5,209 bases of DNA from a virus (IMGVR_UViG_2690315922_000002:1-5209), one strand, 5' to 3'; positions 887 to 5,031 are shown, counted from the stretch's first letter. Numbers and translations are program-made. Notes: generated by a model not told the origin, from the sequence alone.

Positions 887-1289
887 CGCCATAGACGCAA
901 TACTCTCACTTCCCATCGACGACAAGTCACCTCACGAAGTCCACGTTAAAGAACCCAGGCGGAGTAATCCTCAAAACCGCCTTATGTGGGCGTTATTGCA
1001 GGACGTATCACGTCAGGTGCTTTGGCATGGACAGAGACTTGCGCCGGAGGACTGGAAAGACCTGTTCACTGCCCTGTGGCTTAAGACCAAAAAACTAGAG
1101 CAACGAAGTGTGCCTGGTATCGATGGTGGCGTTGTCATGCTTGGTGTGCGTACCAGCAAAATGCGAAAGGCCAGCATGACTGAGCTTATCGAAATCATGT
1201 TCTGGTTCGGAGCAGAGCGCAACGTGCGGTGGAGTGATGACTCCCGGCGAGAGTATGAATGGGCACAACGAAAAGGGAGGGCTGCATGA
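843..1289 (+). CDS. ninB: NinB-like recombination protein (lambda Orf146 family)
   Basis: 148-aa translation matches lambda NinB as recalled in length and conserved blocks (NAI...NPQNRLMWALLQDVSRQVLWHGQRL...DWK...FTA...ERNVRWSD...EW...RAA). Start at 843 (MKQ...) aligns with the lambda N-terminus; an alternative ATG at 858 is possible. Stop TGA 1287-1289 overlaps the next start (ATGA). Confidence 0.8.
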   Translation: MKQIYMLRNEAIRNNAIDAILSLPIDDKSPHEVHVKEPRRSNPQNRLMWALLQDVSRQVLWHGQRLAPEDWKDLFTALWLKTKKLEQRSVPGIDGGVVMLGVRTSKMRKASMTELIEIMFWFGAERNVRWSDDSRREYEWAQRKGRAA

Positions 1290-1813
1290 CTATCAAATCA
1301 AATACGCCAGCACACGACAAGGACTGCTGGCAAACGCCGCTTTGGCTTTTTGATGCACTGGATATTGAGTTTGGATTCTGGCTGGATTCGGCAGCGAGCG
1401 ACAAAAACGCTCTGTGCGCTCACTGGCTAACTGAGGCTGATGACGCGCTAAATTCTGAGTGGATAAGCCACGGTGCAATCTGGAATAACCCACCATACAG
1501 CAATATCAGGCCGTGGGTGGAAAAAGCCGCTGAGCAGTGCATACAACAGCGACAGACGGTAGTGATGCTTGTGCCAGAGGATATGTCAGTCGGATGGTTC
1601 AGCAAGGCTCTGGAGAGTGTTGACGAAGTTCGCATCATCACTGATGGACGGATTAATTTTATCGAACCATCGACAGGGCTGGAGAAGAAGGGAAACAGCA
1701 AAGGTTCCATGCTGCTGATTTGGCGACCGTTCATCAGTCCTCGACGGATGTTTACTACCGTATCCAAATCGGCATTGATGGTGATCGGGCAGGGCGTCAG
1801 GAGGGCTGCATGA
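1286..1813 (+). CDS. Phage Dam-type DNA N6-adenine methyltransferase (orphan methyltransferase; no restriction partner seen in window)
   Basis: 175-aa ORF with the N-terminal [12 protein letters not shown]...[11 protein letters not shown] block typical of phage Dam methyltransferases and the catalytic NPPY motif encoded at 1487-1498. Start ATG 1286 is preceded by AAAGGGAGG (1271-1279). Start and stop both sit in ATGA overlaps with neighbours. The 6-frame track ORF begins at 1259, but ATG 1286 has the better ribosome-binding site. Confidence 0.8.
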
Positions 1814-1986
1814 GGCGACAGCGACGAAGTTTCACCGACATCATCTGCGAAAACTGCAAATACCTTCCAACGAAACGCTCCAGAAATAAACCCAAGCCAA
1901 TCCCAAAAGAATCTGACGTAAAAACCTTCAATTACACGGCTCACCTGTGGGATATCCGGTGGCTAAGACATCGTGCGAGGAAATGA
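1810..1986 (+). CDS. ninE: NinE-like protein
   Basis: 58-aa translation [58 protein letters not shown] matches lambda NinE as recalled. ATG 1810 overlaps the methyltransferase stop (ATGA at 1810-1813); stop TGA 1984-1986. Confidence 0.75.
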
Positions 1987-2390: not shown

Positions 2391-2559
2391 CCCATCCCAA
2401 TCCCTTCAATACCAGAAAGAAAGCGTCGAGCGAGCTTTAACGTGCGCTAACTGCGGTCAGAAGCTGCATGTGCTGGAAGTTCACGTGTGTGAGCACTGCT
2501 GCGCAGAACTGATGAGCGATCCGAATAGCTCGATGTATGAGGAAGAAGACGATGAGTGA
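2383..2559 (+). CDS. ninF: NinF-like protein (cysteine-rich, putative zinc-binding)
   Basis: 58-aa translation MLSPSQSLQYQKESVERALTCANCGQKLHVLEVHVCEHCCAELMSDPNSSMYEEEDDE matches lambda NinF as recalled. CxxC...CxxCC spacing. Start ATG 2383 overlaps the preceding ORF's stop; an alternative in-frame ATG lies at 2371. Stop TGA 2557-2559. Confidence 0.75.
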   Translation: MLSPSQSLQYQKESVERALTCANCGQKLHVLEVHVCEHCCAELMSDPNSSMYEEEDDE

Positions 2560-2770
2560 TTCGTTTAGTAGCTCTGATTATTTGTATTTGGTTTTAGTAC
2601 CTGTGGCAGAAGTATTCCGCTCTCGATTTCCTGAAGGCTCAGCACCATTTAATGCCATTAGCACTTGCTCAAAATGCAGAGTGAAATTTACAGGTAAGCG
2701 GCTGGAAAGAGAGTGGCAGCAATTCTGCAAAAAACATGACCTAAAAAATGACCATGAACTGGAGTATTAA
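2552..2770 (+). CDS. Hypothetical small protein (72 aa); family not recognised
   Basis: ATG 2552 with GAGGAAGAAG (2539-2548) upstream; overlaps ninF stop by 8 nt; stop TAA 2768-2770 lies immediately before the next ATG (2771). Translation MSDSFSSSDYLYLVLVPVAEVFRSRFPEGSAPFNAISTCSKCRVKFTGKRLEREWQQFCKKHDLKNDHELEY. Confidence 0.5.
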   Translation: MSDSFSSSDYLYLVLVPVAEVFRSRFPEGSAPFNAISTCSKCRVKFTGKRLEREWQQFCKKHDLKNDHELEY

Positions 2771-3061
2771 ATGGCTAACCTACGCAAAGAAGCGCGCGGA
2801 AGAGAATGCCAGGTACGTATTTACGGCGTATGCAATGGCAACCCTGAAACTACAGTTCTGGCACATTACCGGATGGCTGGAATTTGCGGAACTGGAATGA
2901 AGCCTGACGACCTGATCGGCGCATGGGCTTGTAGCGCGTGTCACGATGAAATCGACCGACGCACCCATAATCTCGACAACAAAGACGCCAGACTTTATCA
3001 CCTCGAAGGCGTGATCAGGACGCAGGCGATACTGCTGAAGGAGGGGAAGATTAAGCCATGA
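2771..3061 (+). CDS. ybcO: DUF1364-family protein (YbcO-like; putative metal-binding nuclease commonly found next to rusA)
   Basis: 96-aa translation MANLRKEARGRECQVRIYGVCNGNPETTVLAH...CSACHDEIDRRTHNLDN... matches the E. coli DLP12 YbcO pattern as recalled (RGRECQVRI..VCNGNPET..LAH...ACSACHDEIDRRTH). Four conserved cysteines. Stop overlaps rusA start (ATGA at 3058-3061). Confidence 0.8.
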   Translation: MANLRKEARGRECQVRIYGVCNGNPETTVLAHYRMAGICGTGMKPDDLIGAWACSACHDEIDRRTHNLDNKDARLYHLEGVIRTQAILLKEGKIKP

Positions 3062-3420
3062 ACGAATATCAGTTTGTGCTTCCATACCCGCCATCGGTGA
3101 ATACCTACTGGCGAAGACGGGGAAGCCAATATTACATAAGCGATAAAGGCCAGAAATACCGAAAAGACGTACAGCAAATCATCCGCCAACTCAAGTTAGA
3201 TATTTTCACCAAATCACGACTCCGCATCAAAGTCATCGCAGACGTTCCAGACTCCCGCCGCCGCGACCTCGATAACATCCTGAAGGGTTTACTCGACTCA
3301 CTTATCCACGCCGGATTTGCGGAAGACGACGAGCAATTCGATGACATTCGCGTAATTCGTGGTGTGAAAGCTCCAGGCGGAAGGCTTGGAATAAAAATCA
3401 CCGAACTGGAGAACGTATGA
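3058..3420 (+). CDS. rusA: RusA-family Holliday junction resolvase (crossover junction endodeoxyribonuclease)
   Basis: 120-aa translation has RusA hallmarks: N-terminal LPYPPSVNTYW, catalytic-region DSRRRDLDNILKGLLDSL and C-terminal GGRLGIKITEL. ATGA overlaps at both ends. Confidence 0.85.
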   Translation: MNEYQFVLPYPPSVNTYWRRRGSQYYISDKGQKYRKDVQQIIRQLKLDIFTKSRLRIKVIADVPDSRRRDLDNILKGLLDSLIHAGFAEDDEQFDDIRVIRGVKAPGGRLGIKITELENV

Positions 3421-3605
3421 ACGCCACAATTCAAACGATACCAGAGCTTCTTATCCAGACACGAGGCAATCAGACCGAAGTGGCGAGGATGCTTTCCTGC
3501 GCAAGAGGAACAGTGCTCAAGTACAACCGAGACAGCAAAGGCGAGCGTCACGTAATAGTTAACGGCGTCCTGATGGTCAAACAGGGCAAAAGGGGAAGGC
3601 CATGA
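3417..3605 (+). CDS. ninH: NinH-like small DNA-binding protein
   Basis: 62-aa translation (TIPELLIQTRGNQTEVARMLSCARGTVLKYNRDSKGERHVIVNGVLMV) matches lambda NinH as recalled (TIPDML...GNQTEVARRL.CSRGTVRKY...VLMV); contains a helix-turn-helix-like segment. ATGA overlaps with rusA and Q. Confidence 0.75.
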   Translation: MNATIQTIPELLIQTRGNQTEVARMLSCARGTVLKYNRDSKGERHVIVNGVLMVKQGKRGRP

Positions 3606-4225
3606 GACTCGAAAGCGTAGCTAAATTTCATTCGCCAAAAAGCCCGATGATGAGCGACTCACCACGGGCTACGGCTTCTGACTTTCTTTCCGGTACTGAT
3701 GTGATGGCTGCTATGGGGATGGCGCAATCACAAGCCGGATTCGGAATGGCTGCATTCTGTGGTAAGCACGAACTCAGCCAGAGCGACAAACAAAAGGCTA
3801 TCAACTATCTGATGCAATTTGCACACAAGGTATCGGGGAAATACCGTGGTGTGGCAAAGCTTGAAGGAAATACTAAGGCAAAGGTACTGCAAGTGCTCGC
3901 AACATTCGCTTATGCGGATTATTGCCGTAGTGCCGCGACGCCGGGCGCAAGATGCAGAGATTGCCACGGTACAGGCCGTGCGGTTGATATATCAAAAACA
4001 GAGCAATTGGGGAGAGTTGTTGAGAAAGAGTGCGGAAGATGCAAAGGCGTCGGCTATTCAAGAATGCCAGCAAGCGCAGCATATCGCGCTGTGACGATGC
4101 TAATCCCAAACCTTACCCAACCCACCTGGTCACGCACTGTTAAGCCGCTGTATGACGCTCTGGTGGTGCAATGCCACAAGGAAGAGTCAATCGCAGATAA
4201 CATTTTGAACGAGGTCACACGTTAG
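3602..4225 (+). CDS. Q: Late-gene antitermination protein Q (lambda-type Q)
   Basis: 207-aa ORF, the same length as lambda Q. The translation (MRLESVAKFHSPKSPMMSDSPRATASD...CRDCHGTGRAVD...CGRCKGVGYSR...) agrees with lambda Q as I recall it almost residue for residue, including the zinc-binding cysteine cluster. Followed by a pR'-type promoter. Confidence 0.9.
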   Translation: MRLESVAKFHSPKSPMMSDSPRATASDFLSGTDVMAAMGMAQSQAGFGMAAFCGKHELSQSDKQKAINYLMQFAHKVSGKYRGVAKLEGNTKAKVLQVLATFAYADYCRSAATPGARCRDCHGTGRAVDISKTEQLGRVVEKECGRCKGVGYSRMPASAAYRAVTMLIPNLTQPTWSRTVKPLYDALVVQCHKEESIADNILNEVTR

Positions 4226-4267: not shown

Positions 4268-4310
4268 TTGACTGTTTGAATAAAGTTGGGTAAATTTGAC
4301 CCAAGAATGG
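4268..4310 (+). promoter_or_regulatory. Late promoter pR' with overlapping qut (Q-utilisation) region
   Basis: TTGACT (4268-4273), 17-bp spacer, TAAATT (4291-4296), then TGACCC and a -10-like AAGAAT (4303-4308) at the position of the lambda pause-inducing element (AACGAT in lambda as recalled). The sequence differs from the lambda pR' region as recalled at only a few positions up to 4310. Confidence 0.7.
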
Positions 4311-4496: not shown

Positions 4497-4661
4497 ATGT
4501 TAAAACGTGAAGATGCATTGAGACTTTTTAATTACAATCCAGATACTGGAATTCTTACATGGAGGATTCATGTAGGGTGTTTTGACGATATCGAGGAGGC
4601 TAGAAAGGCAATGGAAAATGCCAGAATAAAATATCATGGTGAATTCTCCAGTATGGGATAG
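4497..4661 (+). pseudogene. Remnant of an HNH/AP2-type homing endonuclease gene (54-codon in-frame fusion of the N-terminal and C-terminal ends)
   Basis: Translation MLKREDALRLFNYNPDTGILTWRIHVGCFDDIEEARKAMENARIKYHGEFSSMG. The N-terminal Y-x-P-D/E-T-G-x-L/F-T-W motif and the C-terminal AP2-like G-x-F-x-x-x-E-E-A...A-x-x-K-Y-H-G-E-F are both present, but the roughly 100-residue HNH catalytic core between them is absent. No convincing Shine-Dalgarno sequence. Not in the ORF track because it is under 60 aa. Confidence 0.55.
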
Positions 4662-4851: not shown

Positions 4852-5031
4852 TTATTTCAATAGTTCCTGAAATTCAGCGACTAGATCCGCATGTCTTTTC
4901 ATTAGTGGTGTGATAAGACTTTTCTTGTTTTCATCAGAGTGCGTTGACATGGCTATTTGCAAGGTTTTATCAGAGATCTCTTGAAGTAACATATGGATTG
5001 CGTGGAGCCTTCTTGTGTCAAAGTCATTCAT
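4852..5031 (-). CDS. Small hypothetical protein (59 aa), antisense to the late transcript; family not recognised
   Basis: Minus-strand ORF hand-translated as MNDFDTRRLHAIHMLLQEISDKTLQIAMSTHSDENKKSLITPLMKRHADLVAEFQELLK. The ATG (complement of 5029-5031) is preceded on the minus strand by AAGAAGGA about 10 nt upstream; stop is the complement of 4852-4854. Below the 60-aa cutoff of the ORF track. Lies in an AT-rich segment with no resemblance to lambda. Confidence 0.4.
   Translation of the reverse strand: MNDFDTRRLHAIHMLLQEISDKTLQIAMSTHSDENKKSLITPLMKRHADLVAEFQELLK

Follow-up and report, generated by a model that had tools for sequence, protein, structure and literature searches.

We have found that the methyltransferase gene at positions 1286-1813 of a 5,209-nucleotide stretch of viral DNA (the window, by which we mean the whole stretch that was analysed) is, judged by its sequence, the orphan Dam already described in lambdoid phages (as HK97 gp62 and M.EcoVT2Dam), an enzyme of the small NPPY type. 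The gene sits between ninB and ninE and is bounded on both sides by an identical 14-bp sequence. Taken as a whole, this locus is best explained by a known Dam gene together with a retained ninB 3' end, with no special insertion site, a reading to which we assign a probability of about 0.75.

A reading of the whole window for ORFs, profile matches and signals identifies the 5.2-kb stretch as a lambdoid nin region. It opens with the 3' end of a replication gene (up to position 216), and the start of the nin region is marked by a tR2-like intrinsic terminator on the plus strand at 238-261 (stem-loop AGGCCTGCTGGTAATCGCAGGCCT, then a run of T), which is followed by two small ORFs (285-886). ninB, for the Orf recombination mediator, occupies 843-1289 on the plus strand; its 148-aa product ends in QRKGRAA and matches Pfam NinB (PF05772, E 1.2e-48) over residues 1-131, so that the C-terminal tail of NinB lies outside the domain model. 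Next come dam (plus strand, 528 bp, 175 aa), annotated by Pfam PF05869 and TIGR01712 as a phage orphan N6-adenine DNA methyltransferase, and ninE (1810-1986, plus strand, 58 aa), which matches Pfam NinE over its full length (PF05322, E 2.6e-43). The region continues with a ninX-like ORF (1989-2390), ninF (2377-2559), a 72-aa ORF of phrog_3379 (2552-2770, plus strand), YbcO (2771-3061), RusA (3058-3420), a ninH-like ORF (3417-3605), Q (3602-4225) and a pR'-like promoter (4268-4296). Between the tR2-like terminator and the pR'-like site no promoter-like site was found on the plus strand, and the scan of the window gave neither promoter-like nor terminator-like sites flanking dam on that strand.

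Several features of the window lie apart from the dam locus. The 72-aa ORF between ninF and ybcO is labelled an endonuclease in PHROGs and has no match in Pfam or NCBIfam; its slot is held by the roi antirepressor gene in HK97, HK022 and E. coli 2013C-4991. Beyond the pR'-like promoter, the match of a 54-aa ORF (4497-4661, plus strand) to a PHROG HNH-endonuclease family is confined to a short internal stretch (profile positions 236-266, out of 383), and the ORF looks like a gene fragment at the place where the lysis genes of lambdoid phages normally follow. In the segment after Q there is no holin gene within 1 kb, and a reverse-strand ORF of 59 aa (4852-5031) belongs to phrog_3719. Among complete E. 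coli genomes and phage records none spans at least 80% of the window (the top match covers 75%, in four pieces), and this combination of modules is therefore absent from those collections. We also note that GATC is scarce in the window, with 7 sites (1783, 2265, 2518, 2914, 3013, 4884 and 4975) versus 19.6 +/- 4.4 in mononucleotide shuffles; the region itself encodes the predicted GATC methyltransferase.

The repeat itself, GGAGGGCTGCATGA, occurs exactly twice in the window, at 1276-1289 and 1800-1813 on the plus strand, as the earlier note had observed, and no further match was found in the window with up to three mismatches allowed. The repeat is exactly 14 bp long, as the two copies are preceded by unlike bases (g/a) and followed by unlike bases (c/g), and it is the sole perfect direct repeat of at least 12 bp that a repeat finder reports in the window. 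Both copies stand in the same register. AGG GCT GCA TGA closes NinB and the methyltransferase alike (the latter ending in QGVRRAA), and the ATG within ATGA opens the gene that follows (dam from 1286, ninE from 1810), with GGAGG 5 nt upstream of each ATG. The left copy is the final 14 nt of ninB; the right copy codes for the last four residues of Dam, RRAA, the first R codon beginning one base upstream. dam thus overlaps each neighbour by 4 nt, and on both sides it has a nin-type junction in which the Shine-Dalgarno sequence lies inside the upstream gene and is followed by a 5-nt spacer and the ATGA overlap. That each copy supplies a ribosome-binding site together with an overlapping stop and start, and that both upstream proteins end in RAA, had been noticed before and is borne out here. 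ATGA motifs are typical of nin regions (PMC8022706), and translational coupling of ninB to dam and of dam to ninE is predicted.

An exact direct 14-mer repeat of some kind is present in 77 of 2000 mononucleotide shuffles of the window (about 4%), so the repeat taken alone is only mildly improbable. Its in-register placement at two consecutive gene junctions, together with its conservation in relatives, is not chance. We note also that the 3' end of dam, GATCGGGCAGGGCGTCAGGAGGGCTGCATGA (window 1783-1813, and likewise the dam 3' ends of loci L360-L369), holds GGGC three times; just upstream of the right copy stand ATCGGGC, as at the ninB end of HK97, and CAGGGCG, as at the ninB end of HK022. These may be traces of earlier junctions or a mere G-rich coincidence. 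One of the GATC sites of the window falls inside dam, 17 nt before the right copy.

The identification of the gene as a Dam-type methyltransferase, which had been proposed from the sequence, is upheld by profile matches far above the cutoffs of both models. The ORF matches Pfam Dam (PF05869) over residues 4-169 with E 1.4e-64 and 217.3 bits (cutoff 28.1), and the TIGR01712 equivalog phage_N6A_met with E 2.9e-78 and 261.1 bits (cutoff 97.05). The (D/N)PPY catalytic motif is present as NPPY at Dam residues 68-71 (1487-1498, plus strand; translation IWNNPPYS). The protein is identical to HK97 Dam at 174 of 175 residues and to VT2-Sakai Dam at 172 of 175, and about 244 phage records hold a dam copy that is at least 95% identical, with some 1,600 more holding distant relatives; searched by sequence, the PDB gave no relative of known structure. 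M.EcoVT2Dam of prophage VT2-Sa is described as an orphan, GATC-specific enzyme in PMC6602927, which cites Radlinska and Bujnicki (2001) on this point, and from the 98% identity to this characterised enzyme we infer that the window Dam methylates adenine in GATC. In the VT2-Sakai record this nin-region gene is named dam and likened to the methylases of HP1 and T1, and the homologue of dam in Phi24B has been detected as expressed in lysogen cultures (PMC3342100). Another "DNA adenine methyltransferase" of an Stx phage acts on 16S rRNA; this protein, gp5, belongs to the MT-A70 family and carries a DPPW motif (PMC10810198). It is the product of a different gene and has no bearing on the window dam.

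No restriction endonuclease partner of dam was found among the ORFs of the window, in keeping with the earlier note, and none is annotated in the complete HK97 genome. All ORFs from the tR2-like terminator to Q are assigned to nin-type or phage families (NinB, NinE, NinX-like, NinF, phrog_3379, YbcO, RusA, NinH and Q). The 72-aa ORF and YbcO were considered as restriction partners and ruled out by their size and by their failure to co-occur with dam; HK022 has YbcO and lacks dam, and Sf101 and Stx2-86 have dam and lack YbcO.

If dam is a module that joined an existing ninB-ninE junction, as had been suggested for the window, phages in which ninB abuts ninE directly should hold the boundary once. 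An exact scan of IMG/VR for the 14-mer returned mostly unrelated metagenomic contigs, as chance predicts for a 14-mer in a large collection, and we therefore used 239 IMG/VR loci anchored on NinB, Dam or NinE proteins, together with annotated reference phages. Where a ninB of the window-type allele directly abuts ninE, the junction reads AGGGAGGGCGGCATGA followed by GGCGACAG; the boundary is present once and agrees with the 14-mer at 13 of 14 positions. This empty-site junction is identical to the commonest dam/ninE junction, GGAGGGCGGCATGA. In HK022, which has a lambda-type ninB allele, the ninB/ninE junction is ACAGGGCGGCATGA. The same short sequence is thus found on both sides of the dam module and once at the empty site. 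Near-isogenic pairs of loci with and without dam are 98.9-100% identical over the ninB flank (189 nt) and 97-99.5% identical over the ninE flank (200 nt), and the body of dam is 97-98% identical to that of the window in phages whose ninB is only 49-95% identical. Megablast similarity breaks at window positions 1279 and 1795-1818, that is, inside or at the two copies of the 14-mer. These observations support an inserted module; the part of the proposal that does not follow from them is the mechanism. Recombination at a conserved boundary as such is not required, since one joint together with the long homology of ninB, dam and ninE would also explain both the repeat and its spread. The boundary is not confined to dam and ninE, as it also precedes ninC, which follows ninB in lambda but dam in phage Oslo and some IMG/VR loci.

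A relaxed pattern matched the arrangement in the genomes of two GTDB representatives, of which one is an Escherichia species. We note that a ninB tail, dam and ninE, in the order typical of enterobacterial lambdoid phages, stand on a 9.7-kb contig (JAUVQU010000080.1, locus L374) binned in a marine-type Cellvibrionaceae MAG, an occurrence that is probably a binning or contamination artefact.

A base-by-base comparison of 241 distinct junction contexts indicates that the boundary is a family of alleles. The first bases of the 14-mer follow the ninB allele, and relatives with the ninB allele of the window have GGTAGGGCTGCATGA, GGGAAGGCTGCATGA or similar variants at the left junction. The eighth base is T before dam in 96 of 99 contexts and G before ninE in 98 of 118; it travels with the downstream gene, which would place some exchanges within or just upstream of the 14-mer. 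The junctions of relatives are usually 1-3 bases off the 14-mer. Among distinct related contexts the exact sequence was found at 7 of 107 dam/ninE junctions and 3 of 52 ninB/dam junctions, none of the 239 related loci holds two exact copies, and no other exact double copy at the spacing of the window was found in IMG/VR or the GTDB species representatives. Exact copies are thus minority alleles with no second double-exact case, so the perfect identity, which the earlier note had pointed out, is incidental; the 14/14 match in the window appears to be a chance pairing of two minority junction alleles.

A sequence of this kind might be no more than what any overlapping junction of the nin region looks like, but in its strict form the 14-mer is not a universal ATGA-junction sequence. 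Six other ATGA junctions of the window differ from it at 6-8 of 14 positions, 11 of 14 ATGA junctions of HK97 differ at six or more, and those of the window, HK97, lambda and P22 mostly do so as well. Within the 39.7-kb HK97 genome GGCNGCATGA occurs only twice, on the two sides of dam. A looser form, GCNGCATGA, coding for a protein end in AA before the stop, closes NinC, an inserted HNH ORF, Dam and three diverged NinB alleles, and a few junctions in the right part of the nin region, ninG/ninH and ninY/ninH among them, resemble it. The idea of a general ribosome-binding and overlap sequence, which the earlier note had named as a reason to set the repeat aside, therefore holds for the looser form at the ends of NinC, HNH and NinB genes and fails for GGCNGCATGA, found only around the HK97 dam.

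The C-terminus of Dam looks foreign to its family and equals the tail of ninB. The Pfam and TIGRFAM Dam models end at residues 169 and 168 of 175; the Dam of a Proteus phage, the closest non-nin homologue (61% identical, encoded beside an integrase gene), aligns through IGNQ and then ends in ILNEWKIA, not VRRAA; and distant homologues mostly cease aligning by residues 146-168. Other inserts have retained the tail as well. In Stx2 phage 86 the HNH ORF that precedes dam ends in KARWGDRAA, encoded by the last 31 nt of a lambda-type ninB, and positions 411-441 of HK97 ninB run unbroken into this locus. NinC ends in GREAA, with GGGAGGCTGCATGA. We note that the ninB before the HNH ORF of Stx2 phage 86 (L363, 1409-2011) is a different, shorter allele, and that HNH endonuclease genes lie between ninB and dam in several relatives, including three E. 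coli matches (H102, H111 and H112). In Salmonella phage Oslo (L372, 1058-3210) the junctions ninB/dam, dam/ninC and ninC/ninD follow one another and all carry a GG(C/A)NGCATGA tail, which suggests repeated stacking of genes at one site.

In the account that we favour, the 14-mer would be the 3' end of ninB, doubling as the translation start region of the downstream gene (GGAGG, a 5-nt spacer and ATG over TGA), and the ninB tail would have stayed with that gene on account of the ribosome-binding site and start that it provides. When dam arrived between ninB and ninE, the surviving joint would have left the last 14 nt of ninB on ninE. Dam would then read into this relic of ninB, which gives its RRAA end, and the original copy at the end of ninB would now start dam, hence the two copies. 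The gene, with no promoter or terminator of its own, would be read within the early-right (nin) operon and coupled to ninB through the ATGA overlap. Later spread and loss of dam would most likely have taken place by ordinary recombination in the long homology of ninB, dam and ninE. Of all this, the anatomy, the family assignment, the single boundary copy at empty sites and the keeping of the tail by other inserts are observed; we infer the order of events and that selection has acted on the start region. No donor turned up in which dam stands beside ninB with its native 3' end, and the single-joint scenario is thus a reconstruction. Three observations sit less easily with it. The genomes that lack dam could instead stem from deletion between the two repeats, the association of the eighth base also fits crossing-over at the boundary, and the AA end is kept among NinB alleles that are only about 55% identical, so that a constraint beyond translation initiation may exist.

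In a true linker-mediated exchange, the view of the earlier note and in line with Susskind and Botstein and with Clark et al. (2001), the boundary would have stood on both sides of a dam cassette as well as at the ninB/ninE junction, and homologous or homeologous recombination within roughly 14 bp would have inserted the module. This we consider possible and on balance doubtful. It accounts for a boundary that is single at the empty site and double around dam, and that stands interchangeably before dam, ninE and ninC. It also accounts for a 14-mer whose left part varies with the upstream allele and whose eighth base varies with the downstream gene, which would place exchanges inside it or just upstream. 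Short conserved boundary sequences have already been proposed (PMC3029335), and phage systems recombine very short homologies at low frequency (PMC2327257). However, the donor must already hold the boundary on both sides, which pushes the question one step back, and the same product would come from one joint in which the ninB tail stays on ninE; such a joint suffices for the repeat, and crossing-over at the 14-mer itself, or a linker, is unneeded. Mosaic boundaries, moreover, mark where homology ends, not necessarily where crossing-over took place, and flanks that are 97-100% identical over hundreds of bp can serve ordinary recombination. The direction of change could also be the reverse, with ninB-dam-ninE the older order and phages such as HK022, in which ninB abuts ninE, derived by loss of dam through recombination or slippage between the repeats. 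We regard this too as a minority view, with about the same standing. Between loci that have dam and matching loci that lack it, the identity of the flanks reaches 100%, and the empty-site junction is the hybrid to be expected from deletion, its left part being that of the ninB side and its right part, CGGCATGA, being typical of dam/ninE; yet an ancestral empty site predicts the same hybrid, and the ninB-like tail on Dam is left unexplained. Deletion is compatible with tail retention as a later event.

The remaining alternatives are far weaker. ATGA overlaps are common in nin regions (PMC8022706) and several unrelated nin junctions resemble GAGGCNGCATGA, so the two copies might be unrelated by descent and alike simply because each has to combine a strong ribosome-binding site with an ATGA overlap. 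We think this very unlikely, as the copies share the 5-nt spacer and the Ala-Ala codons too, six other ATGA junctions of the window, presumably functional, differ from the 14-mer at 6-8 of its positions, GGCNGCATGA is confined in HK97 to the two sides of dam, and the 31 nt that the HNH ORF shares with ninB reach far past what a start region needs. A direct repeat around a single-gene insert also recalls a target-site duplication left by a transposon-like or homing insertion of dam, and HNH endonuclease genes do insert beside dam in some relatives. The repeat belongs to coding sequence and a start region, however; the methyltransferase is the only ORF of the insert (1290-1799), with no transposase or integrase, and Dam does not belong among the nuclease families. 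No terminal inverted repeats bound the insert, and on this ground and that of the missing transposase we rejected a transposable element, leaving the whole idea of a mobile-element footprint with a negligible probability. A moron, with a promoter and terminator of its own, was rejected because no such signals flank dam and the gene overlaps both neighbours by 4 nt. It is finally conceivable, though we hold it improbable, that the tail of ninB (..GGGCNGCATGA) is more than a passive relic and acts as a hotspot of recombination, with genes stacked there as in the ninB/dam/ninC/ninD series of Oslo; the tail might then be a preferred cleavage or annealing site for a phage function encoded nearby, be it the HNH endonucleases whose genes have inserted here time and again, NinB/Orf, or Rap/RusA.

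Hosts of the enterobacterial phage Dam already own a Dam enzyme. Host Dam reportedly leaves the DNA in P22 and lambda virions under-methylated (PMC8022706), so a phage copy could complete methylation. By analogy with related enzymes an anti-restriction or epigenetic role of the window Dam, as suggested before, is plausible. The gene, the arrangement (HK97 versus HK022) and the idea of a boundary sequence are all already published, and the locus is a tidy instance of described phage mosaicism with little import beyond illustration. What it illustrates is that in tightly packed, coupled operons the last codons of one gene functionally belong to the next, and that surviving insertions therefore tend to duplicate the tail and lend it to the incoming protein. 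Short direct repeats made in this way mimic insertion footprints or "linkers" with no dedicated mechanism. Whether mosaics arise by homologous linker exchange or by selected illegitimate joints is an old question, for which this locus is a possible small test bed, not a decisive one.

The closest known systems are HK97 gp62 and M.EcoVT2Dam (VT2-Sakai / 933W L0094), which are the same gene, with the same length of 528 bp, in the same slot between ninB and ninE. HK97 has the exact 14-mer at its own dam/ninE junction; its left junction, ATCGGGCTGCATGA, agrees at 11 of 14 positions because its ninB is a lambda-type allele, 56% identical in nucleotides to that of the window. In VT2-Sakai the left junction reads GGTAGGGCTGCATGA and the right one GGAGGGCGGCATGA, and two exact copies are paired only in the window, as far as IMG/VR and the GTDB representatives go. 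HK022, HK633, mEp234 and Gally represent the empty site, with ninB abutting ninE, one ATGA boundary and no dam; the boundary is ACAGGGCGGCATGA in HK022 and GGAGGGCGGCATGA with the window-type ninB allele. More widely, modules bounded by a short shared gene-boundary sequence, as around the window dam, are what the linker models of lambdoid mosaics describe (Susskind and Botstein 1978; Clark et al. 2001, as cited in PMC3029335 and PMC2327257), and the same two papers cite illegitimate recombination followed by selection (Hendrix et al. 1999; Juhala et al. 2000); the evidence from the window fits linker exchange and illegitimate joining with selection alike. A similar case is gene 68 of mycobacteriophage Island3, an inserted gene whose product shares its last 18 residues with the C-terminus encoded by the upstream gene, and for which recombination between repeats of about 50 bp, by insertion or deletion, was proposed (PMC3029335). 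Island3 differs from the window in belonging to other phages and in having a longer repeat that is not an ATGA start region. As to the enzyme, M.Phi93DAM of the Lactococcus 936-type phage Phi93 and the methyltransferase in the mosaic phi11 record of S. aureus are distant members of the NPPY Dam family (33-34% identity by tblastn). M.Phi93DAM, in which NPPY is the only classical methyltransferase motif recognised, methylates GATC and guards phage DNA from DpnII (PMC4190342), and the adenine methyltransferase pamA of mPhi11 alters host gene expression and virulence (PMC12435837); the phi11 match is a candidate pamA only. The hosts and genomic contexts of these two enzymes are unlike those of the window, and their roles are only candidate ones for the enterobacterial Dam, whose nearest counterparts in gene, length and slot are those of HK97 and VT2-Sakai.
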